DNA from: a virus
Lineage: Duplodnaviria; Heunggongvirae; Uroviricota; Caudoviricetes
IMG/VR virus record: IMGVR_UViG_2541047878_000001
Location: 1-44,521 of that record
DNA length: 44,521 nt
Direction: 5' to 3' (one strand)
The notes beneath the pieces are model-generated. The model had not been told where the DNA came from, ran no database searches, and saw only the letters and a program-made list of their open reading frames with translations. The translations under genes and the position numbers were made by a program. Below are positions 4,720 to 44,521 of this stretch, in pieces; position 1 is the first letter of the stretch; every line of letters starts with the position of its first letter.

Positions 4720-4995
4720 TCAGGAAACAGTTGGCTGATGCTCTTCGAGTGCGACTTTCTGACCAATTTTCTGAAATGTACTCTCCGAATTTGGACAAAT
4801 AGAAAAAGGCCATTTCCATTCAGGGTCTGATGGAAAGACTTCAGCCTGTTCTAAAGCACGGCGTAAAGAGAACACAACTCCAGCCATAATCTGATGTTTC
4901 CCATTGGTCCAGCTATTGCCGCTCTGATCTACAGGAGCGGCTATGTCGTATGACCAAACGACTTCACCACTATTGTTTAAAATCTGGACTTTCAT
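4720..4995 (-). CDS. Hypothetical small protein (91 aa)
   Basis: ORF with GGAGG upstream, adjacent to the stop of the 5004-5225 ORF; overlaps a plus-strand ORF (4557-4802), so the call is tentative. Confidence 0.3.
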   Translation of the reverse strand: MKVQILNNSGEVVWSYDIAAPVDQSGNSWTNGKHQIMAGVVFSLRRALEQAEVFPSDPEWKWPFSICPNSESTFQKIGQKVALEEHQPTVS

Positions 4996-5003
4996 TTTGT
5001 TCT

Positions 5004-5225
5004 TTAACCTCCAGATTTCCGCGCATCTAAAGGCGCATTCTCATTTGGTGTGAACTGAATAGTTGTGCTGATATTGATTAATGCCCCGACACACAAGACT
5101 ACGCACTCAGAGCAGATAGCAACTTCATCTTTTCCGCCTTTGGCGATGATTTTTTTTGCCTGCAGCTCGTTTGCGCCACAAAACGAGCATGTGAAATAAC
5201 GGTTCATTTTCGCTCTCTTACACAT
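5004..5225 (-). CDS. Small zinc-ribbon protein resembling the ClpX N-terminal zinc-binding domain
   Basis: CSFCG...(19 aa)...ICSECV spacing similar to the ClpX ZBD C4 motif; first gene downstream of the putative PL/OL region. Confidence 0.4.
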   Translation of the reverse strand: MCKRAKMNRYFTCSFCGANELQAKKIIAKGGKDEVAICSECVVLCVGALINISTTIQFTPNENAPLDARKSGG

Positions 5226-5313
5226 AGTATTTAACGAATCATCCGGTCATTCATACGCCACCGGCGGCTACTTCGTGGGCGTCCTGCCTGTCCGTGATAG
5301 CTTACATTATGTT

Positions 5314-5352
5314 GCTACTTAAAGTAGCAGAAATCAACAACAAAAAGTAGAT
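5314..5352. promoter_or_regulatory. OL-like operator cluster (putative CI binding sites, PL region)
   Basis: Perfect 15-bp palindrome GCTACTTAAAGTAGC (5314-5328) and a further AAAGTAG half-site, related to the repeats in the cI-cro intergenic region. Confidence 0.4.
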
Positions 5353-5429
5353 ATTTGTTGTTGTCTATGATTTTTCTATAATTAATTGAAAGTTAAATGT
5401 TTTTGCTGATTTACGGTAATGACTCCAAC

Positions 5430-5933
5430 TTATTGATAGTGTTTTATGTTCAGATAATGCCCGATGACTTTGTCATGCAGCTCCACCGATTTTGAGAACG
5501 ACAGCGACTTCCGTCCCAGCCGTGCCAGGTGCTGCCTCAGATTCAGGTTATGCCGCTCAATTCGCTGCGTATATCGCTTGCTGATTACGTGCAGCTTTCC
5601 CTTCAGGCGGGATTCATACAGCGGCCAGCCATCCGTCATCCATATCACCACGTCAAAGGGTGACAGCAGGCTCATAAGACGCCCCAGCGTCGCCATAGTG
5701 CGTTCACCGAATACGTGCGCAACAACCGTCTTCCGGAGCCCGTCATACGCGTAAAACAGCCAGCGCTGGCGCGATTTAGCCCCGACATAGCCCCACTGTT
5801 CGTCCATTTCCGCGCAGACGATGACGTCACTGCCCGGCTGTATGCGCGAGGTTACCGACTGCGGCCTGAGTTTTTTAAGTGACGTAAAATCGTGTTGAGG
5901 CCAACGCCCATAATGCGGGGTGTTGCCCGGCAT
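5430..5933 (-). CDS. insB: IS1 InsB (transposase frame, expressed as InsAB' by -1 frameshift)
   Basis: 167-aa ORF overlapping the insA 3' end within IS1. Confidence 0.85.
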
Positions 5934-6127
5934 CCAACGCCATTCATGGCCATATCAATGATTTTCTGGTGCGTACCGGGTTGAGAAGCGGTGTAAGTGA
6001 ACTGCAGTTGCCATGTTTTACGGCAGTGAGAGCAGAGATAGCGCTGATGTCCGGCGGTGCTTTTGCCGTTACGCACCACTCCGTCAGTAGCTGAACAGGA
6101 GGGACAGTTGATAGAAACAGAAGCCAC
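5852..6127 (-). CDS. insA: IS1 InsA
   Basis: 91-aa ORF with zinc-finger-like CPSC...CSHC inside IS1. Confidence 0.85.
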
Positions 6128-6295
6128 TGGAGCACCTCAAAAACACCATCATACACTAAATCAGTAAGTTGGCAGCATCACCTGATTTACTATGCTATAA
6201 ACTGAAAATATCGCACGAAGTTGGAGTAGGTATTGAGCAAGGTGAATTATGAGGAGGGAGTTTTTTATGAGATTAATCAGGGAGAAAGAAGAGTA

Positions 6296-6318
6296 AAGCC
6301 CGGTTATGCGGCCGGGCA
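6296..6318 (-). terminator. Putative terminator downstream of the ParA-like gene
   Basis: GC hairpin (GCCCGGCCGCATAACCGGGC on the minus strand) followed by a T-rich tract. Confidence 0.35.
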
Positions 6319-6324
6319 CATGCA

Positions 6325-7401
6325 TTACTTTGTAAGTTCTAGAACTCGTTGAGCCAGCCCTTTAAATTGTTCGTTAAAGGCGTCTCTGCTTGATTTCATT
6401 GTATTTAAGGCATGCCCAAATTGCCCTGAATCGCGAATTTGCTGATCACTGATGGAGAAAACAGGTGTCGCTAGTTGTTGGCTTATTGCGATTAATGAGT
6501 TGAAATCGGAAATATGCGCAAGATCATAGGCTGATAAATCTCCACTGACTGTTGTTTTGTTAATTGCATGTTGCACTTTATCTCGTGGAATTATGCAGGT
6601 AATTTTTTCTAGATTTGGCACTAAGATCGAATCAACAGCATCACGGATAGCTGCCATCCATTTTTCGAAAGATTTTACAGGTGCTCCTTTACGCGGCCTG
6701 TATCTCTGCTGAATCATACCTAGAAACTGCGGTGCATTTTTAATTGATTGTGAAGAGTTACCATCATTATTTTCTTTAAATAATGCTAATTCTTTGTGCC
6801 AGCGAGGTATATTTTTTGAGAGAGAGCGAATTGCTTGCCAGCAAAAAAAGTCTGGAGCTACAGGTACGATAAAATAGTCACTTGACATGAGAACTACTTC
6901 ATTTAAACCTCCAATATTAGGGCTGAGATCATAAAGAATGTAATCAATATTATTCTTCATGGCGATTAGCTGTAATATTTTTGGCAGGTTCCCTGGTATA
7001 TTTCTTGTAGCAGGAATACCAGCAGCAATTTTTAGAGAAACACTTATCTGTGAATCTAAGTCCGAAACATCTAAATGTCCGGGAAGAAGCAGAAGGTTTT
7101 CATGCAGTGTAGGGTGTAATTTTCCCGTTTCTTTTTCAAGGTATGCTTCAGGTTGTCCGCCATTAATCAAATATTCTACAATAGGTCCAAGAGTTAAGTT
7201 ATCTCTGCTAGAATAAAAAGAATCTAAACCCTCATCAATCTTTTCATAGCCAAGAACCATTCCTGTTAGATTACATTGCGAATCAAGGTCAACCATCAAT
7301 ACTTTCTTGCCTTCATCCGCAAGTGCCCATCCAAGATTGAAGGTTGTTGTGGTTTTACTTACCCCACCTTTATGATTAAAAAAACAAATTGATTTTGTCA
7401 T
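6325..7401 (-). CDS. ParA/MinD-like ATPase with C-terminal extension (358 aa), orphan
   Basis: Deviant Walker A NHKGGVSKTT and ParA-like N-terminal region; AT-rich by eye; sits between the OL-like operators and cI, co-oriented with cI; no parB-like partner nearby. Confidence 0.7.
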   Translation of the reverse strand: MTKSICFFNHKGGVSKTTTTFNLGWALADEGKKVLMVDLDSQCNLTGMVLGYEKIDEGLDSFYSSRDNLTLGPIVEYLINGGQPEAYLEKETGKLHPTLHENLLLLPGHLDVSDLDSQISVSLKIAAGIPATRNIPGNLPKILQLIAMKNNIDYILYDLSPNIGGLNEVVLMSSDYFIVPVAPDFFCWQAIRSLSKNIPRWHKELALFKENNDGNSSQSIKNAPQFLGMIQQRYRPRKGAPVKSFEKWMAAIRDAVDSILVPNLEKITCIIPRDKVQHAINKTTVSGDLSAYDLAHISDFNSLIAISQQLATPVFSISDQQIRDSGQFGHALNTMKSSRDAFNEQFKGLAQRVLELTK

Positions 7402-7571
7402 ATTTCTCTATCCTTTCGACCCCCAGTATATTGTAATTTACGCTGGGTGATTATTTTATATTGTTAATGATAATGTTTAATAAAAATAAGAGAGTAAAAC
7501 AACTATTAGTAATAGCGCTTGCTTGCTAAATATTATTTTTTTACCTTTAGTTCTATAGTCTAAACGAAGAA

Positions 7572-8276
7572 CTAAAGCCGGTTGTATTTAATTGATTCGT
7601 GTATCAATGCTTTGCCCATAACATAAAGTTGATCTTGGGACTTCTCATCAATGTACCATTTCTCATAGGCTGGATTATCCGAAAGAACGGCGAGTTTGTT
7701 GCCTTGCATTTGTAGACGTTTAACGTGGAACGTCTTACCATAAACGAAAGAGTAAACACCATCAGTTTGGAAGTTGCGAACAGAAATGTCGACAAACAGT
7801 CGATCTCCGGAAACTAGAGTAGGGGACATGCTGTCGCCATTTACAGTCATAACTTTAATATCATCTTGAGAACGATTACCGAAAAGAGAACGGGCATGCT
7901 CTGTTGTGAACTCAATGGCGTAGAGCACATCAACATAGTCTGAAAGCATATAGGTCCCAGGTCCTGCGCTAACGCTAAGATCCAAAACTTCTATCCTGTA
8001 TACATCGGGTTTTGTTGGATTGGGGATGCTTGCCATTTCCTTACATCCTTCTCTCTCGCCAACACCATATTCTAAATATGAAGCTGATACCCCCAGAGCC
8101 AATGCAAGTTTATTCATGACAGAGGCACGAGGCTTCGCAGCGCCGATTGTGTATCGCCGCGCCATTTCATATGTAACGCCCACAAGACTTTTGAGTTGGG
8201 TGACAGAAATTCCCTTGTTTGTCATTAGCTCGTTTAGTCTCTTGGCGAAATCTGGATACTTCTGTTCTTCTACCAT
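7572..8276 (-). CDS. cI: CI-like repressor (HTH plus LexA-like S24 peptidase domain)
   Basis: N-terminal HTH (MTNKGISVTQLKSLVGV) and C-terminal S24-like domain (VNGDSMSPTL...GKTFHVKRL); start ambiguous between 8276, 8312 and 8333, and 8276 leaves a typical operator-containing intergenic region. Confidence 0.8.
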   Translation of the reverse strand: MVEEQKYPDFAKRLNELMTNKGISVTQLKSLVGVTYEMARRYTIGAAKPRASVMNKLALALGVSASYLEYGVGEREGCKEMASIPNPTKPDVYRIEVLDLSVSAGPGTYMLSDYVDVLYAIEFTTEHARSLFGNRSQDDIKVMTVNGDSMSPTLVSGDRLFVDISVRNFQTDGVYSFVYGKTFHVKRLQMQGNKLAVLSDNPAYEKWYIDEKSQDQLYVMGKALIHESIKYNRL

Positions 8277-8314
8277 AGGTAGAAGATTACTCGCATCACA
8301 TACGCTAGTCATTT

Positions 8315-8350
8315 CTATTTTAAGTAGTTGCATTTTGCTATTTTAAGTAG
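8315..8350. promoter_or_regulatory. OR-like operator repeats in the cI-cro divergent promoter region
   Basis: Two copies of CTATTTTAAGTAG (8315-8327, 8338-8350) 23 bp apart between divergent cI and cro. Confidence 0.45.
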
Positions 8351-8382
8351 CATCATCCCTCTGAATTTCAGAGGAGAAAGGT

Positions 8383-14187: not shown

Positions 14188-14568
14188 TTGTGGAGAAAGT
14201 TGATGCGTGATATTCAGATGGTTCTTGAGCGTTGGGGGGCATGGGCGGCGAGTGACAGTTCAGGAGTAGACTATTCGCCTATAGCTGCTGGGTTTAAGGG
14301 ACTTCTTCCCTATACAAGCAAAACACGTCAGGCTTGTTCAGATAGTGATGCATTAATTATTGAAGGTTGTCTTGCTCGTCTAAAGCAAAAAAGGCCAGAC
14401 GAACATTCGCTTCTTGTTGCCCATTACCTATACGGTATCTCTAAAAGAAAGCTCGCCAAAGCTCGTAAAAAGGATGAGAAACTAATACGCATTGAGATAC
14501 AGATGGCTGAGGGGTTTATTGAAGGCTGTCTCTCAATGCTTGATCTTTGTTTGGAAATGGACCAATAG
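14188..14568 (+). CDS. Late-gene antiterminator Q (phage 82/21 type, putative)
   Basis: 126-aa ORF at the canonical position before the lysis genes, with sequence pattern remembered for the small Q family. Confidence 0.55.
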   Translation: MWRKLMRDIQMVLERWGAWAASDSSGVDYSPIAAGFKGLLPYTSKTRQACSDSDALIIEGCLARLKQKRPDEHSLLVAHYLYGISKRKLAKARKKDEKLIRIEIQMAEGFIEGCLSMLDLCLEMDQ

Positions 14569-14591
14569 ACTACCAGAATAGCAACTGCCGC

Positions 14592-15014
14592 TCAGCTTTG
14601 CGGATCGGCAGTTTCTGATGGTGTAATGTTACGCGCAGATGTTTCAAGTATAGATTCCCTTCCGATTGATACCAAAATTTCGATTGTTCTTGCTTTAGCC
14701 TGCATCAATGTTGATTTTATTTCAGGACTTAAGTGGTCAGATCGTAACTGCTTCTCAATCTCAGCCAAATCACGCTTGCATTTTGCTCTTTTGGCTGCGT
14801 CTTCTGGAGATTCGAAACCATGCCTCGAAATGAACCAATTCATGACGTAAGTTAAAGTTGCCGCAACACCCGGTACTAATGCGTAGGCTACAGTTCGCCA
14901 CACGCTATTAGGGTCGGTTAAAATCGCGCTAACAAGAACACTTAAAATTGCTCCCCAACCACCAGTTGAAAGGGTAGCTTTTCCTGTGCTTAGACCTTTA
15001 GTTTGAGAATTCAT
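14592..15014 (-). CDS. Cassette gene 3: two-TM membrane protein with coiled-coil tail (140 aa)
   Basis: Two hydrophobic helices followed by a charged helical C-terminus; 4-nt overlap with the upstream gene. Confidence 0.5.
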   Translation of the reverse strand: MNSQTKGLSTGKATLSTGGWGAILSVLVSAILTDPNSVWRTVAYALVPGVAATLTYVMNWFISRHGFESPEDAAKRAKCKRDLAEIEKQLRSDHLSPEIKSTLMQAKARTIEILVSIGRESILETSARNITPSETADPQS

Positions 15015-15280
15015 TTTCGTTTTGAATTCTCCGCAATTGCCTCATCAATGAGGGTTGTTAGCATTTTTCCCTTTTTACTTGGAACTTTTATTACTAGCGT
15101 TTTGGTCACTCCGGAATCTTCATCGTGATATCGGAATTCGAAGACTTTTGTAGGGAATAGTCGACGCCAAAGCAAGGCTGACGCTGAATAGCAAAAACGA
15201 CTAAAGGCAGGGATGATCATTATCACCCCTATCCAGAAGATCAGTTGTGCTATCTGCATGTTTAGTGTCACTTTTGTCAA
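15011..15280 (-). CDS. Cassette gene 2: small single-TM membrane protein (89 aa)
   Basis: N-terminal hydrophobic helix (IAQLIFWIGVIMIIPAF); ATGA-type overlaps on both sides. Confidence 0.45.
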   Translation of the reverse strand: MTKVTLNMQIAQLIFWIGVIMIIPAFSRFCYSASALLWRRLFPTKVFEFRYHDEDSGVTKTLVIKVPSKKGKMLTTLIDEAIAENSKRK

Positions 15281-16146
15281 GCCTCAGCAGGGCGTTTTCG
15301 TTTTACTTTGGTTATAGCATACTTGGTTGTGGCATTTCGCGCAGTGAAAGTTTTTATAGTTTTTAGCTCAACAACAAACAAATCTTCTTTTGTAAAACTG
15401 ATGATTCCGTTTTGAACTTGGTGTATAAACAACTGATCTTCAAAGGTAACAGCATGCTCTTCGCCTAAATAATCGATTCTCCAACCCTTTGTACCCTCGA
15501 AGTTGATCTGTACGAATCTAACATTGACTTCTTCTACAGACTCTTCTTTTTCAAGTAGTGTGCCTCTAGGCAGCGGTTTGATCTCTTCGGTTTCACTTCC
15601 TTCAAGACGAACGACTTCTTCGCCTTCATCATTCAGCACCTTAAATACTGCTCCTTGTTTGCCGTCTAATGGTGCACGAACTACATTCACAAGGGCATCA
15701 CGGACTTCTGGATCTGTTACTAACTTAGCCACTGAGTCATGGCAAACAATTTCTTCCCCTTCAAGCTCAAGAACAGATTCTTCTGTTCCTGCCCGTTTTG
15801 TTACCGAAATTACTTTCTTGCTGCCCAGTTGGCGGATTAGTGATAATGCTGGAGCTCCAATAGTAGCCCCGGCTATCCCTGTTAGGCCAATCACTTTTGC
15901 TACGTCGACGGCATGAGGAACAAGCTCCATCATCGTATAGGATACGCCGAGTGATCCCGCTTCAGCTGGATTAGTAACCATTAACTTAACGGTTTGTTGG
16001 CCGTCATTAAGTCTTTTATCAGCTGCTGATATTAAATCTGCCATCGAACCTATGGAAATGCTTAATGTTTTGGCATCAATTTTATGCTGTGCTAATTCAT
16101 TATCCTCTGCATCGTAGAAGATCTGAAAAGAAGTTGTTTTAGTCAC
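15277..16146 (-). CDS. Cassette gene 1: soluble acidic protein of unknown function (289 aa)
   Basis: Long ORF opposite to the phage late direction, no TM segment, no motif I recognise; first gene of a three-gene coupled operon. Confidence 0.55.
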   Translation of the reverse strand: MTKTTSFQIFYDAEDNELAQHKIDAKTLSISIGSMADLISAADKRLNDGQQTVKLMVTNPAEAGSLGVSYTMMELVPHAVDVAKVIGLTGIAGATIGAPALSLIRQLGSKKVISVTKRAGTEESVLELEGEEIVCHDSVAKLVTDPEVRDALVNVVRAPLDGKQGAVFKVLNDEGEEVVRLEGSETEEIKPLPRGTLLEKEESVEEVNVRFVQINFEGTKGWRIDYLGEEHAVTFEDQLFIHQVQNGIISFTKEDLFVVELKTIKTFTARNATTKYAITKVKRKRPAEA

Positions 16147-16272
16147 TCTTTGCTCGCTATGTCTTGATTTTTTTCCATAAAATACCTTTTTTTGGTGTAA
16201 AAAACATTATCGCGGTCCGCAAAAATTGCGTTACTGTGTTAAGAGTGATTACTTCGTCACACAGCTTAAACC

Positions 16273-16760: not shown

Positions 16761-17813
16761 ATGAAAAATACTGTAAAAATAAACAGTGTTGATTTAATCA
16801 ACGCTGATTGCCTGCATTTTATTCAGTCCCTGCCTGATGATTCCATTGACCTGATAGTTACCGATCCGCCGTACTTCAAAGTGAAGCCCAACGGTTGGGA
16901 CAATCAGTGGAAAGGGGACGAAGATTACCTTAAGTGGCTGGACCACTGTCTGGCTCAGTTCTGGCGGGTGCTGAAACCTGCCGGAAGCCTTTACCTGTTC
17001 TGTGGACATCGCCTGGCATCTGATATCGAGATCATGATGCGTGAACGTTTCAACGTGCTTAACCATATCATCTGGGCGAAGCCGTCCGGACGATGGAACG
17101 GGTGTAATAAAGAAAGCCTGCGGGCATATTTCCCCGCTACAGAGCGCGTTCTGTTTGCTGAACATTACCAGGGGCCATATCGCGGCAAAAGTGACGGCTA
17201 TGCGGAAAAAGAAAGGGAACTCAAACAGCACATAATGGCACCGCTGATATCGTATTTCAGGGATGCACGTGCCGAACTGGGTATAACGGCAAAACAGATT
17301 GCCGAAGCCACTGGTAAGAAAAACATGGTTTCCCACTGGTTTGGTGCCAGTCAGTGGCAGTTGCCGAATGAGGCTGACTACCGGAAGTTGCAGGCACTGT
17401 TTTCCCGTATAGCGGCAGAGAAGTTTCAGGAACAACAACTGGAACAGACACACCACCAGCTGGTGGCATCTTATGATTCACTGAATCGCAAATATTCTGA
17501 ATTGCTGGATGAGTTTAAATCTCTCCGGCGCTATTTCTCCGTATCAGTCTCCGTGCCTTATACCGATGTCTGGACGCATAAGCCCGTTCAGTTCTACCCG
17601 GGTAAACATCCGTGCGAGAAACCGGCGGATATGCTCCGGCAAATAATCAATGCCAGTAGTCGACCTGGTGATCTGGTTGCTGATTTCTTTATGGGATCCG
17701 GTTCCACAATAAAAGCAGCAATGGCGCTGGGGCGTCGGGCGTTAGGTGTTGAACTTGAGTCAGAGCGGTTTAATCAGACGGTGAAAGAGGTAAGTGAACT
17801 GGTGGGGAAATAA
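16761..17813 (+). CDS. Orphan DNA methyltransferase (N6-adenine/N4-cytosine family, DPPY motif)
   Basis: SIDLIVTDPPYF catalytic motif and C-terminal FFMGSGST SAM-binding motif; no adjacent restriction endonuclease ORF. Confidence 0.8.
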   Translation: MKNTVKINSVDLINADCLHFIQSLPDDSIDLIVTDPPYFKVKPNGWDNQWKGDEDYLKWLDHCLAQFWRVLKPAGSLYLFCGHRLASDIEIMMRERFNVLNHIIWAKPSGRWNGCNKESLRAYFPATERVLFAEHYQGPYRGKSDGYAEKERELKQHIMAPLISYFRDARAELGITAKQIAEATGKKNMVSHWFGASQWQLPNEADYRKLQALFSRIAAEKFQEQQLEQTHHQLVASYDSLNRKYSELLDEFKSLRRYFSVSVSVPYTDVWTHKPVQFYPGKHPCEKPADMLRQIINASSRPGDLVADFFMGSGSTIKAAMALGRRALGVELESERFNQTVKEVSELVGK

Positions 17814-17889
17814 TTCTGGTGGCCACGTTGCGTGGCCTTTTTATTTCCAACACAGCACCCGCAAATATCGCGAGGTGAGAGATGACGAA

Positions 17890-18225
17890 ATGCCTCATAA
17901 CCCAAATACCTGGCCGGACTGGCTGGAGTTGTTTCAGAGCTGGTGGCGTGGAGACACACCGCTGGGTGCAGTGATTATGTCGATCGTTATGGCTGGTTTG
18001 CGCATCGCCTATTTTGGCGGTCGCGGTGGCTGGAAGCGAAAAACGCTCGAGATTTTGCTATGTGGCGCTCTGACGCTGACCTTTGCATCCGCTCTTGAGT
18101 ATGTCGGATGGCCTAAATCGCTTTCTGTTGCCATTGGTGGTGGCGTGGGGCTGATCGGTGTCGATGCTATTCGTGGGGCTGCAATGCGAGTAATCGGTAA
18201 CAAATTTGGTAGCTCGAAGGAGTAA
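17890..18225 (+). CDS. Holin (lambda S-like)
   Basis: About 111 aa with three hydrophobic segments and a charged C-terminus, immediately upstream of the endolysin; start placed at the internal ATG (MPHNPN) rather than the track ORF start. Confidence 0.65.
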   Translation: MPHNPNTWPDWLELFQSWWRGDTPLGAVIMSIVMAGLRIAYFGGRGGWKRKTLEILLCGALTLTFASALEYVGWPKSLSVAIGGGVGLIGVDAIRGAAMRVIGNKFGSSKE

Positions 18226-40761: not shown

Positions 40762-40862
40762 TTGACAAAACCTAAGGTAAGCGTATACTCACAACCGCCA
40801 AGTTTTTCGTATTTGCTTACGATAGGAGAAGCCAGCGACAGCGGTTCGCTGGCTTTTTCGTT
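40762..40862 (+). ncRNA. Candidate small RNA: near-consensus sigma-70 promoter followed about 45 nt later by an intrinsic terminator
   Basis: TTGACA, 17-bp spacer, TATACT at 40762-40789, then hairpin GCCAGCGA-CAGCGGT-TCGCTGGC plus TTTTT at about 40833-40860. Confidence 0.3.
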
Positions 40863-41394
40863 ATCTTTTTGCATTTTTTCTCATCCAAGTTTCAGCCGCT
40901 TGTTGACTGACACCAAATGTTTTGCTTATATCTTCAACAGTCATTGTGGGCAAAACTAGTCTTGAGTCAATTAAGAAGTGGCTTGCAAAAACATCTGCTT
41001 GCCATTCGCTGTCTTCATAGATTTTATGCCCTCCACTAGTCTTATTACGTGCATAGATACTTTGATTGCGATGCATGACTAAATGACCAAGTTCATGCGC
41101 AACAGTGAATCTCGCATGGTTCTCACCATTGCACACTGCATCGTAAACAGATCGCTGTAAAACAATTTTGTTCTTATCTGGATAAGTCACTGCATAGCGT
41201 TTGGGCAGTTCATGATCTTCAACAATTTCTAGCTCAATGCTTTCTGAGGCCATAAGACCTTCTAGTAATACATCCAGTCTCAGATATGTGTGATTTGATA
41301 TCTGAAGAACGTCTCTCAGACGATGAGCGTATGATTTAATCATGCTGGTGCTGAGAGGTGAAACGCGATGGCCAAGTTCTCGTTTCGCAATCAT
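40861..41394 (-). CDS. ImmA/IrrE-family zinc metallopeptidase
   Basis: HEXXH motif (FTVAHELGHLVMH) in a 177-aa protein immediately downstream of, and coupled to, an XRE-family HTH gene. Confidence 0.7.
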   Translation of the reverse strand: MIAKRELGHRVSPLSTSMIKSYAHRLRDVLQISNHTYLRLDVLLEGLMASESIELEIVEDHELPKRYAVTYPDKNKIVLQRSVYDAVCNGENHARFTVAHELGHLVMHRNQSIYARNKTSGGHKIYEDSEWQADVFASHFLIDSRLVLPTMTVEDISKTFGVSQQAAETWMRKNAKR

Positions 41395-41397
41395 TAT

Positions 41398-41775
41398 TCA
41401 GTCCTTTAACATTTTATTAAGCTTATCGAGTTGCTCTGGACTCAGGTCCTTAAATTTACGAGCAAAAACAAGCATTAGTTCTTTGTTCTGCTCATTTGCA
41501 TCCGACATATCAACCTTAATGGACGGTTGAGAAATCTCTGCCTGTTTCTTGAGATTGATGATGTCTTGTCCGCTAAGCTCAAAAGTTGTTGCAATCGTAT
41601 TTACTAATGAGTCCGGTATAGCTCTTTTGCCTAATTCAATGGCGGATAAGTAAGCCGAACTAACGCCTAACAGATCAGCCATATTTTTGAGCACCATACC
41701 CCGGTCTATTCTCATTTTTCTGAGAGTCTTACCAAAGCTAGTTACCATGTTGCGCCTCCTACAATCCATGCTCAC
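41398..41775 (-). CDS. XRE-family HTH transcriptional regulator (ImmR-like)
   Basis: HTH (LRKMRIDRGMVLKNMADLLGVSSAYLSAIELGKR) at the N-terminus; upstream partner of the ImmA-like gene. Confidence 0.7.
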   Translation of the reverse strand: MSMDCRRRNMVTSFGKTLRKMRIDRGMVLKNMADLLGVSSAYLSAIELGKRAIPDSLVNTIATTFELSGQDIINLKKQAEISQPSIKVDMSDANEQNKELMLVFARKFKDLSPEQLDKLNKMLKD

Positions 41776-42081
41776 TTATACTAAAAACCAAACTCAAGAT
41801 CAACAAAAATTGTAGAATTTTTTAATCTCAGCGTGTGATGACAATCTACATAAAATCATGAAATGGTGCAAGGCGTAACTTAAAAAATACCATATGTAGT
41901 GTCAATTTTATGTGCTGTATGGATATATGGGGTTGGTAAACTTTTGCTCTTTTGTGCTCCTCAGCTATATGGTTGTTTGATTTTTGAACATCTTGTGGAA
42001 CATAAATTGGGTTTATGCTTTTCCCTTTCGGTGACAACATGTTTATAGGATGTATAATCCATAAAAAAAGGAGGGGATGGC

Positions 42082-42843
42082 GTGCAAAAGAATTTGTTAC
42101 AATTATGCTACGAAGGAGAGTGTGGAGAAAATTATATCCGTAGCATGAATGAAAAAGGGCAGATTTTTGTTTCACTTTCAGATGTGCTAAGAACGCTTTC
42201 TGCTGAGAACAGAAAACTGGATGGAAAGACTTCTCAAAGCTTGCTCACTGTAATAAGAGCGGTAATAAAAACTTTAGATCCAGATGAGTTTAGGAATGTT
42301 TCTCTTGTCGTGGATGGTGAAACTATCTCTGAGGTATTTCTTACTGAACCAGGTCTATATAGAGTACTTGCTCAGGATACTACTGCTGCGGGGAAAAAAT
42401 TCCAACGCTGGCTTTTTCATCAGGTCCTTCCGTCTATTCGTGAATTTGGTGTATATCCTCCGCCACCTAAGCAAGAACGTTCAGAACTGAGTGCTTTTGC
42501 TAACAGTCTGCAGCAGACGGTTCAAGCATTGGTAATGGAAATAGAAAAACGTGAAGAGTTAGAAAGTAGAGTAAACCAAGTTGAACTAAAAGTTAACTCG
42601 TTAGAAAGTTTAAGAGATTTGTCTCAGTTCAGAAGTGTTCCTCAACGATTGATGGAGTTAGGTTTGGATACCTATTCGGTTGAGGAGCTTTGGCAATGGT
42701 GTGAAAAATTGCGTAGTGAACGTGGAGCAGAAAGAATTAAGTGCCCCTCCGGATTGAATATAAATTCTTGCTATCCATTAGCTTTGGTTGATGAAGCTAT
42801 CGCTATATACCAGAAAGTAGTTGAGGCAAGAACACGTCAGTGA
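42082..42843 (+). CDS. Bro-N domain protein (antirepressor-like)
   Basis: Bro-N-like region (FLTEPGLYRVLAQDTTAAGKKFQRWLFHQVLPSIREFGVY) and coiled-coil C-terminus; divergent from the XRE/ImmA pair; GTG start after AGGAGG. Confidence 0.6.
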   Translation: MQKNLLQLCYEGECGENYIRSMNEKGQIFVSLSDVLRTLSAENRKLDGKTSQSLLTVIRAVIKTLDPDEFRNVSLVVDGETISEVFLTEPGLYRVLAQDTTAAGKKFQRWLFHQVLPSIREFGVYPPPPKQERSELSAFANSLQQTVQALVMEIEKREELESRVNQVELKVNSLESLRDLSQFRSVPQRLMELGLDTYSVEELWQWCEKLRSERGAERIKCPSGLNINSCYPLALVDEAIAIYQKVVEARTRQ

Positions 42844-42857
42844 GCTTGAGGGAAAAA

Positions 42858-42885
42858 AAAGCCCGCATAAGCGGGCTTTTTTATC
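42858..42885 (+). terminator. Rho-independent terminator
   Basis: A8-GCCCGC-ATAA-GCGGGC-T6 hairpin immediately after the Bro-N gene. Confidence 0.6.
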
Positions 42886-43007
42886 ACTCGGGAGCTGCGG
42901 CTCCTTTGCGTATCCTTTTTTGTCTCCTCACCGTCTGGTCGGTGTCCTGCTGAGACTGCTAACATCCTGTTTTTGTTGGTGTTGTCCTTACACCGTCCAA
43001 TCATGAT

Positions 43008-43040
43008 TGGTGGAGCTGGCGGGAGTTGAACCCGCTGACA
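43008..43040 (-). other. tmRNA (ssrA)-like 3'-terminal fragment (T-arm plus acceptor plus CCA), candidate att-site remnant
   Basis: Minus strand reads GTCAGCGGGTTCAACTCCCGCCAGCTCCACCA, matching the 3' end of enterobacterial tmRNA as I recall it; no tmRNA body or tRNA 5' half is present. Confidence 0.35.
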
Positions 43041-43105
43041 CGTCGTATGCAAGAACTTGCTGCGGCTGGATGGTGGACTTTCGATAGTGCGAGTATTGAA
43101 TGATT
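43031..43105. repeat. Repeat family copy c
   Basis: CGCTGACACGTCGTATGCAAGAACTTGCTGCGGCTGGATGGTGGACTTTCGATAGTGCGAGTATTGAATGATT, about 86 percent identical to copy b over 65 bp (hand alignment). Confidence 0.5.
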
Positions 43106-43474
43106 TCCATCTATTATAGATTTTACCGTATTTCGGCATGAATGAAACTGAATATCCTCCCACCGACCCTCCATGACTTTACACCACTGTCTCTGGGGCT
43201 GCTATGTGCCAAAAGCGGACATAACGACACGTTAGTTAGAAATCTCAAGACCAATTAGGTTGGATACTTACATGTATACTATTGCCTAACGATACTACCC
43301 TATCAACCTCATGGTTTATAGGCGGGGGTGAGAGCCAATCGAACGCTATCGTACGTTTTTATGCTGTCTACCCTAGACCCCAAGTAGACATGAATCTTAC
43401 CTGATTTCCATACGAGGGCGACGTTGATCATCCAGCTTTAGTGCGAGCACTGAACTTAACATTTACCAGCAATA

Positions 43475-44521
43475 GTGATATTTTCTACAAAGAAAAATAT
43501 ATGGAATAACGTCATCGCGGGTACAAAAATGACTATAAAAAAAACATATGTAACACCAACAGAAATAGTGAAATATTTTTATGACAAACCGGAAAACGAT
43601 AACGTAAAAGAGAGAAAAACAATTGAGAGCCTGACCCGTCTCAAACCTGAGTGGGAAAATACTCTCGATATGATGAAGTTAATACGCAATTGTGAAAAGC
43701 TAGCAACTGAAGGTATTTTAATGGAATTGTCTTCAGGACATACTCTTTTTGACCGTTGCTATTTCGCACCGAATTTCAATGAATCAGATGCGAAATATGG
43801 AAAGTATGATTTTATAGCTGATGGATTTGAGTCAATCATAGACCGCCTTAGTCCTTCCGTTTTACCTGTTGTTGTTGAAAAAAGTGATGGTTCACATGAT
43901 CTTGGTACTAGTTTTATTGTTGGGAATAACCACACGATATTTACAGCCAGACATGTTATTGAAGACATGAAGAGTATCAGGATACTTAGAGCTGGTGGTG
44001 AGGCTTTACCAATACATAAAATCTTTGTATCTAACGATGAACGTATTGATATCGCTTTAGTTTTCACAACCATTCCGAATGAAGATAATATTCAACCACT
44101 TAAGGTCTCAACCAAAGCCTCGGTACTGGATGAAATTTTATCAATAGGATTTCCACCCATTCCAGGATTTGATGCATTAAAGTTATATGACGTTTCGCAT
44201 ATAAATTCGTTTGTCCGACTGTCAAAGGGGCGAATTGTTGGTTCTGGTCACTCTTACTTAGATTCACAAGACTTTTTATTATTCAATGCTAGGGTTAAGG
44301 GGGGGAATAGCGGTGGCCCTATAATTAACAAATACGGCCTTGTTGTTGGTATGCTTGTACAAATACCAATATCATCTGAGGACAGTTCAAAGATTGATAA
44401 CCTTGGATATGGTATAGCTGTAACAGGAAAAAGCCTGCTGGATGCCATTACATTTACAGAAAATGGCCGCGAATTAACACTCACCGACCGAGGAAATGGA
44501 GAATATTCAACTCTAGCATAA
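43475..44521 (+). CDS. Trypsin-like serine protease with uncharacterised N-terminal domain (348 aa)
   Basis: Catalytic triad context FTARHV, IDIAL and GGNSGGPII in the C-terminal half; N-terminal roughly 140 aa unassigned; AT-rich; true start may be an internal ATG. Confidence 0.55.
   Translation: MIFSTKKNIWNNVIAGTKMTIKKTYVTPTEIVKYFYDKPENDNVKERKTIESLTRLKPEWENTLDMMKLIRNCEKLATEGILMELSSGHTLFDRCYFAPNFNESDAKYGKYDFIADGFESIIDRLSPSVLPVVVEKSDGSHDLGTSFIVGNNHTIFTARHVIEDMKSIRILRAGGEALPIHKIFVSNDERIDIALVFTTIPNEDNIQPLKVSTKASVLDEILSIGFPPIPGFDALKLYDVSHINSFVRLSKGRIVGSGHSYLDSQDFLLFNARVKGGNSGGPIINKYGLVVGMLVQIPISSEDSSKIDNLGYGIAVTGKSLLDAITFTENGRELTLTDRGNGEYSTLA

Follow-up and report, generated by a model that had tools for sequence, protein, structure and literature searches.

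The locus

The 44,521-nucleotide stretch of DNA considered here (the window, IMG/VR record IMGVR_UViG_2541047878_000001) is a segment of an Escherichia coli chromosome that carries proA and a tRNA-Thr gene, followed by an integrase-bearing myovirus prophage that resembles SfV and CPS-53. A prophage in E. coli strain EC6622 is 97-99% identical to the window across most of its length, and the annotation of this near-identical prophage places the integrase next to tRNA-Thr. The subject of this report is a gene in the prophage's immunity region, located at positions 6325-7401 on the minus strand. Its open reading frame (ORF) begins MTKSICFFNHKGGVSKTTT and encodes a stand-alone "long ParA" (AAA_31) ATPase of 358 amino acids, which is referred to below as the ATPase.

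The gene lies 170 bp beyond the stop codon of a cI-type repressor gene (7572-8333, minus strand; HTH_3 and Peptidase_S24) and both genes have the same orientation. On the other side of cI are divergent cro- and cII-like genes. The cI ORF obtained mechanically has 253 amino acids and starts at 8333, inside the OR operators; the 234-amino-acid RefSeq product, which starts at 8276, is more plausible. A repeat search found the OR operators at 8312-8352, where two copies of the palindrome CTATTTTAAGTAG occupy the cI/cro spacer. The palindrome TGCTAYTTWAAGTAGCA is present at 8312-8327 and 8335-8352 in this spacer, and it is present a third time at 5311-5329. The region around the third copy (5309-5354) contains one full palindrome, TGCTACTTAAAGTAGCA, and a partial second site, and its 46 nucleotides are 78% complementary to 8311-8356. 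This region is a genuine second operator set of the cI-type repressor, OL, and is the left edge of the immunity region. Because the operator palindrome is common to OR and 5311-5329, the ATPase gene is inside the immunity region.

A preliminary description of this DNA had noted an AT-rich gene, co-oriented with and downstream of cI, with OL-like operator palindromes to its left, and that encoded a 358-amino-acid protein with a deviant Walker A motif. All of these features are real; for example, the GC content of the cI-ParA module (6-8 kb) is 0.36-0.41, as compared to 0.50-0.58 for most of the prophage. Two other features of the interval, an IS1 element (5415-6182) and a hairpin (6298-6317), had been overlooked.

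The hairpin is a terminator-like GC structure (GCCCGG..CCGGGC, then TTTACTCTTC, a T-rich tract) on the minus strand directly 3' of the ATPase stop codon; it was found by a terminator scan and is visible in the sequence, and it is likely the 3' end of the cI-ParA transcription unit. Between cI and the ATPase gene, the AT-rich spacer (7402-7571, minus strand) contains a pair of AU-rich hairpins and, at 7479-7450, a weak promoter-like site; its folding has a minimum free energy of -31.7 kcal/mol (z -2.3). The terminator scan found no canonical terminator in this spacer. The number of promoter sites predicted in it is not above the expectation for shuffled sequences; the ATPase gene may be co-transcribed with cI or may have a promoter of its own.

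The IS1 element is complete (InsA/InsB, minus strand), and the 8 bp gtaaatca are duplicated on its two sides, at 5407-5414 and 6183-6190. Its site, between the ATPase terminator and OL, is inside the interval, but the element is not part of the system. Strain EC6622 also has the IS1, and it is absent from the otherwise identical module of strain IHE3034; no co-oriented gene follows the ATPase gene in this IS1-free copy. A 54-amino-acid ORF at 6161-6325, which overlaps the ATPase stop codon and extends into IS1, was considered as a partner gene truncated by IS1 and was rejected as spurious. It begins within the terminator hairpin, it has no RefSeq annotation and removal of the IS1 restores merely a low-complexity ORF of about 57 amino acids.

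The ATPase

The ATPase has a deviant Walker A motif at residues 11-18 (KGGVSKTT, with K11 and K16 as its two lysines), a Walker A' motif with D38 and D40 and a Walker B aspartate at D158. It matches AAA_31 (E value of 1.9e-29), CbiA and other ParA/MinD families in Pfam, and phrog_164 ("ParA-like partition protein") in PHROG; it reaches no NCBIfam equivalog threshold. Residues K11, G12, G13, K16, T17 and T18 are invariant among 67 homologues, as are D38, D40 and D158. An AlphaFold (AF2) model of the protein (predicted local distance difference test score, pLDDT, of 87.7; predicted template modelling score, pTM, of 0.90) is a single compact ParA fold that contains all seven canonical strands. 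The last strand (293-298) is followed by a helix, the residues PVF, another helix and a terminal helix (330-357). With its deviant Walker A motif, its aspartates and its seven-stranded fold, the protein belongs to the ParA/MinD (SIMIBI, deviant Walker A) superfamily. A search of the literature for the ATPase (WP_000167381) found nothing.

The preliminary description had given the protein a C-terminal extension of roughly 100 amino acids, a view that has to be abandoned. The family profile aligns with PDB 3PG5 over positions 3-324 (E value of 3e-28) and all seven strands are accounted for; therefore, the extra length consists of internal insertions and is not a C-terminal extension. The insertions, which are the least conserved parts of the protein, are at about residues 47-100, 185-211 and 243-290 and together make up the approximately 100 extra residues. 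A separate C-terminal domain was likewise rejected, as the region belongs to the ParA fold both in the model and in 3PG5. MinD has an amphipathic membrane-targeting helix at its C terminus, outside the folded core; in the ATPase, the terminal helix is modelled within the fold (pLDDT of about 89-97) and has conserved hydrophobic positions, and it could conceivably still bind membranes. A profile of the last 73 residues, in the region where the preliminary description had suggested looking for function, had no significant match in the PDB.

Comparison with the Salmonella and Morganella orthologues gave a proportion of nonsynonymous differences (pN) of about 0.19-0.20 and a saturated proportion of synonymous differences (pS) of about 0.8 (0.81); as dS is saturated, the dN/dS ratio was not quantified. 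The ATPase is predicted to be catalytically intact and appears to be under purifying selection. The invariant catalytic residues and a pN lower than pS thus indicate that the gene is not a decaying remnant.

Is the ATPase a partition protein?

A ParA fold with all of the motifs and a PHROG label that refers to partition would suggest a true partition or positioning ATPase, whose partner and centromere have escaped recognition, or else the decaying remnant of a plasmid-prophage partition system. We consider both versions very improbable. No ParB or other partition partner is annotated or detected in the window, including the segments that are specific to it (14.2-19.2 kb and beyond 40.5 kb). 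The annotation of the near-identical EC6622 prophage contains no such gene, and none was seen in about 20 other genomic contexts of the family. Neither MinC nor MinE is encoded near the ATPase gene. Iteron- or centromere-like repeats are absent around the gene, where only the operators repeat. Thus, the absence of a parB partner and of centromere repeats reported in the preliminary description was correct. Furthermore, the element is a prophage with an integrase, and the gene is co-oriented with cI and outside the replication and late operons. Among 5,426 complete E. coli genomes, 109 carry the gene together with the adjoining end of cI at an identity of at least 99%, and all 111 copies in them are chromosomal, with none on a plasmid. 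Consequently, none of the three components of a ParABS system, i.e., a partner, centromere repeats and an extrachromosomal replicon, accompanies the ATPase, and it is almost certainly not a DNA-partition protein. The suggestion that it might be a partition-related remnant is also disfavoured because the ORF is intact and conserved in the 109 genomes and, as indicated above, its catalytic residues are invariant and its pN is low.

An exchangeable slot behind the repressor

The cI type of the window is present in 206 E. coli genomes, and the ATPase gene is found only in the 109 in which cI is at least 99% identical. The position behind the repressor displays different genes in other members of this group. 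Strain XJW9B277 has the same yfdPQR backbone and a cI that is 92% identical, and its slot encodes a 361-amino-acid protein that is 93% identical to GiPD474, an anti-phage protein of Salmonella (see below). The E. coli orthologue of GiPD474 is present in 71 genomes. Strain GPEC1240, with a cI that is 95% identical, has an unrelated two-gene cassette in the slot. The two genes (L110, 3458-4449) are overlapping hypothetical genes that encode proteins of 120 and 210 amino acids; neither belongs to a Pfam family and the larger one looks coiled-coil-like. This cassette is a third, uncharacterised occupant of the hotspot.

Salmonella Gifsy repressors that are 94% identical are followed either by GiPD474 or by a relative of the ATPase with 72% identity, and in S. 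Typhimurium 14028 the same Gifsy-1 slot is occupied by the three-gene system RemAIN. The order of a repressor followed by the ATPase recurs with unrelated repressors in the P22-like phages ST160 and SE1, in Salmonella Gifsy-like prophages and in Pseudomonas, Morganella and Pectobacterium. A DUF3024 gene is located between the repressor and the ParA-like gene in ST160 (L001, 4521-4862) and SE1, and in a Morganella prophage (L023, 7418-7759); this gene may be another small piece of cargo or may be accessory to the ATPase. In Megalodesulfovibrio gigas a P4-like element contains the ATPase gene, and its neighbours are HicAB, DarT/DarG and a type I restriction-modification system. Taken together, the ATPase gene is variable cargo in a slot of the lysogeny module, where it alternates with validated defence genes.

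The best documented of these genes is GiPD474 (STM474_RS13505, WP_000368620.1), a single gene of the Gifsy-1 prophage of S. Typhimurium 4/74 that was described in November 2025 (Bosma et al., AEM 2025, PMC12724215). It is situated in the immunity region next to the repressor and encodes an AAA_31/ParA-like ATPase with an "unknown domain" (PMC12724215). Its deletion and complementation, and its expression in E. coli, showed that this protein alone lowers the plating of phages FO1, T4 and Alf5, by as much as about 5 logs, and it is strongly expressed in lysogens (PMC12724215). We recovered its sequence by way of the homology arm of a published knockout primer.

BLASTP aligns the ATPase with GiPD474 at 22% identity, collinear over 352 residues. 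The hidden Markov model (HMM) of the GiPD474 family scores 42 bits on the ATPase and 623 bits on GiPD474 itself, and so, the ATPase is not a member of that family. A comparison of the two family profiles by hhalign has a 99% probability (E value of 7e-18) over 309 collinear columns, which include the motif DFNSLIAISQ/DGNTLAAIINHEG. In an AlphaFold (AF2) model of GiPD474 (pLDDT of 89.4), strands and inserted helices follow one another just as they do in the model of the ATPase. The two proteins represent separate families of one "long ParA" group.

The wider family and its HEPN partners

Full-length relatives of the ATPase occur in at least 554 species representatives. The identity among Proteobacteria, across classes, is 60-65%. 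Distant relatives (38-45% identity) are found in Firmicutes, Cyanobacteria, Chloroflexota, Acidobacteriota, Bacteroidota and Spirochaetes, among others.

Neighbouring genes were clustered over 80 sampled loci. One partner recurs in 15 of them, all in the most distant clade: a co-oriented ORF of about 200 amino acids that overlaps the ATPase stop codon by about 16 nucleotides and encodes a RiboL-PSP-type HEPN protein, with a score above the Pfam threshold. The ATPase and the HEPN-coupled ATPase of one of these loci (L089) are 41% identical over their full length (E value of 5e-86), and the family HMM gives 314 bits; on Orf317 of the Pf1 prophage, it gives 144 bits. Such pairs correspond to the dyads of ParA/Soj and HEPN (MAE_18760 / RiboL-PSP) that have been predicted to be toxin-antitoxin modules, in which the ATPase is the antitoxin (Anantharaman et al. 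2013, PMC3710099). A search of the literature for an experimentally tested ParA-HEPN dyad found nothing.

The Pf1 prophage (AY324828.1, reverse complement) has an unannotated HEPN ORF directly downstream of Orf317 (L002, 5022-5549). This ORF matches the HMM of the partner with an E value of 5e-42 and scores 37.8 bits in Pfam, and so, Pf1 carries a ParA-HEPN dyad. As annotated, Orf317 seems to lack about 30 codons at its start.

Another partner, a conserved protein of about 310 amino acids that matches no Pfam family, is encoded downstream of the ATPase, in tight coupling with it, in a small clade from Bryobacterales, Thiomonas and Burkholderia (L061, 9042-9974; L062, 9050-9985; L092, 9020-9955; also L080). 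It is possibly an alternative effector to HEPN.

These associations raise the question of whether the E. coli ATPase serves as the sensing or regulating half of a split ParA-HEPN-type system, whose RNase or other effector would be encoded at another site in the host, or as an orphan "antitoxin" that counteracts such toxins. The ATPase belongs to the same orthologous family as the HEPN-coupled proteins, including Orf317 of Pf1, and the antitoxin role predicted for the ATPase of such dyads, together with the joining of a ParA-like ATPase to a HEPN anticodon nuclease in RemAIN, would be compatible with this explanation. However, the ATPase gene has no adjacent HEPN gene. The partner HMM has no match in a six-frame translation of the whole window, where merely a terminator and IS1 follow the ATPase gene, nor does the HEPN profile in 11 related prophage and satellite loci (those of GiPD474, ST160, Salmonella and M. 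gigas among them). No HEPN gene was found in the close clade either (59-72% identity). In a rough neighbour-joining tree, made with no bootstrap, the clade of the ATPase falls within a deep branch, and the members sampled from this branch are solo without exception, which argues for an autonomous function. GiPD474 acts alone, even in a heterologous host, and cross-talk at 41% identity with dyads that are mainly from other phyla is unlikely. We therefore regard a split system as quite unlikely.

Proposed function

Our preferred interpretation, to which we assign a probability of about 0.6, is that the ATPase is a lysogen-expressed ATPase switch that has no separate effector and guards the lysogen against other phages, and that it resembles GiPD474 in function. 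An anti-phage role is favoured because related prophages carry the proven anti-phage gene GiPD474 in the same slot. Of the two possibilities raised in the preliminary description, a lysogen-expressed exclusion protein is thus the better supported, since the slot holds GiPD474 or RemAIN in sister prophages. The accompanying suggestion that it would be of an unfamiliar type needs to be qualified. ParA-like single-gene defence at the same position is already known from GiPD474 (PMC12724215); the ATPase family is a different one, and it is much more widespread.

The process might take place as follows. In the lysogen the gene would be transcribed leftward as far as the hairpin (6298-6317), through read-through from cI, from a promoter of its own or both. 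The protein has the motifs and the fold of deviant Walker A ATPases and would presumably form the ATP-sandwich dimer that is typical of them. A component of an infecting phage would then take the place of the usual ParB- or MinE-type partner and switch the ATPase. Because there is neither a nuclease domain nor a coupled effector gene, it is conceivable, if rather doubtful, that the ATPase itself blocks a step after adsorption, in that it occludes or sequesters the DNA of the phage or a factor that the phage needs, or else that it acts by way of a host protein.

Several observations weigh against an anti-phage role. The expression of the ATPase in lysogens is presumed, the hairpins in the spacer could attenuate read-through from cI and a mechanism that requires no effector is speculative. 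The identity to GiPD474 is only 22%, and the HMM of the ATPase family matches GiPD474 over the ParA core alone, with no detectable sequence similarity in the last ~90 residues. A PADLOC scan of the ATPase gave solely matches limited to the Walker A motif (candidate PDC-M28B). An identity of 60-65% across the proteobacterial classes is unusual for an immune sensor, and such strong conservation would fit an interaction with a conserved cellular component. Finally, the gene adjoins housekeeping genes in several species, with no recognisable prophage.

The last of these points would also be expected if the ATPase regulated the physiology of the prophage or the host, for example repressor activity or induction, replication (as Soj does on DnaA) or division and polar positioning (as with MinD, FleN and FlhG). 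ParA/MinD ATPases are often regulators, and FleN, FlhG, MinD and MipZ are among the structural matches of the ATPase. Strong conservation of the family suggests a conserved cellular target, some homologues are in apparently non-mobile chromosomal contexts and some database records name homologues "regulatory protein". These labels, however, are unsupported annotations. Moreover, the slot is exchanged freely with validated defence genes while the surrounding regulatory genes stay constant, and therefore the prophage's own regulation is independent of the ATPase gene. On balance, a regulatory role is unlikely.

Returning to the anti-phage interpretation, a broader version of it can be put forward tentatively. 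Solo long-ParA ATPases may be a large, ancient and unrecognised class of antiviral switches, present in more than 554 species from at least eight phyla, in which the ATPase itself is the effector; it might, for example, coat or occlude the DNA of the phage or put a phage or host machine in the wrong place. The HEPN-coupled forms, that of Pf1 among them, GiPD474 and RemA would then be parallel elaborations of one principle, and no gene would be found more often than the E. coli version in the rexAB-equivalent slot of SfV/CPS-53-like prophages.

A defence role of the ATPase, if true, would imply that ParA-type ATPases, which are classically motors that position DNA or other cargo, have been repeatedly recruited as antiviral proteins, and that at least three branches, GiPD474, RemA and the ATPase family (alone or with HEPN), share one prophage hotspot. 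The ATPase family is far wider than the published range of GiPD474. As the ATPase gene is present in 2% of the complete E. coli genomes, including extraintestinal pathogenic (ExPEC) and avian pathogenic (APEC) strains, it could affect host range in phage therapy. The allelic series in one backbone, consisting of the ATPase gene, GiPD474 and the two-gene cassette, is also a clean system for studying a bare ATPase switch.

Other features of the prophage

The leftward (PL) operon starts with genes for a 73-amino-acid protein with a ClpX-type C4 zinc finger and for a phrog_3195 protein (5004-5225 and 4720-4995, respectively); an N-like antiterminator was not recognised among its first genes. Downstream of the Q antiterminator gene (14188-14568) is a region of low GC content, ~0.42, at 14590-16150 that differs from the EC6622 prophage. 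It contains two minus-strand ORFs with no Pfam family, 14592-15014 (140 amino acids) and 15277-16146 (289 amino acids). This is the site where lambdoid phages carry morons such as stx, and so, the region is another candidate for cargo. The same window-specific variable region has a gene for an N6/N4 DNA methylase (PF01555, E value of 1.2e-42) at 16761-17813, directly before a holin gene at 17794-18225. The AT-rich right end of the window (40861-44521), which EC6622 does not share, encodes an M78 (ImmA/IrrE-like) peptidase and HTH pair (40861-41394 and 41398-41775) and a Bro-N protein (42082-42843); an ORF for a trypsin-like peptidase (43475-44521) runs out of the window. This end may be another mobile or cargo module.

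Comparison with known systems

The ATPase differs from Soj, ParA/SopA of P1 and F, ParF, McdA and MinD in that it lacks a partner such as ParB, MinE or McdB, a centromere and an extrachromosomal replicon, and it has about 100 more residues, as internal insertions, than canonical ParA/MinD proteins. A distant relative is PDB 3PG5 (DIP2308 from Corynebacterium diphtheriae), an uncharacterised structural-genomics target of 361 amino acids with 24% identity.

Lambda RexAB and BstA of the Salmonella phage BTP1 are exclusion genes that are expressed in the lysogen and located next to cI. The ATPase gene is placed equivalently within the immunity region, in the orientation of cI, and it would follow the same logic of lysogen-expressed protection. 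Scans of Pfam, PHROG, NCBIfam and PADLOC gave ParA-type families only, with no homology to RexA or RexB, and neither sequence nor domains relate the ATPase to RexAB or BstA; the resemblance is positional.

In Gifsy-1 of S. Typhimurium 14028, RemAIN (STM14_3218-3220) takes up this same position behind the repressor. It is described as consisting of the ATPase RemA, the immunity protein RemI and the HEPN anticodon nuclease RemN. RemA is an AAA_31 ParA-like ATPase that is 27% identical to the ATPase over 223 N-terminal residues, i.e., the core; it is shorter (279 amino acids) and lacks the C-terminal half of the long ParA proteins. Of the three genes of RemAIN, those for the nuclease effector and the immunity protein are missing here, as no equivalent of RemI or RemN adjoins the ATPase gene, which places the ATPase outside RemAIN. 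Homology between RemN and the RiboL-PSP HEPN partner was not detectable.

The closest parallel is GiPD474, for which PADLOC has no match. Anti-phage activity has been shown for GiPD474 only, and its Walker A motif is KGGVGKT, preceded by a 17-amino-acid N-terminal leader, whereas that of the ATPase is KGGVSKT. In the models, GiPD474 has a beta-hairpin where the ATPase has a helix. Otherwise, the two have much in common. Both are stand-alone AAA_31 proteins of about 360 amino acids, encoded by AT-rich genes (GC contents of 0.38 and 0.41) that are downstream of the repressor and co-oriented with it. Each family is broadly distributed, and in E. coli as in Salmonella the two genes take each other's place within the same prophage lineages.

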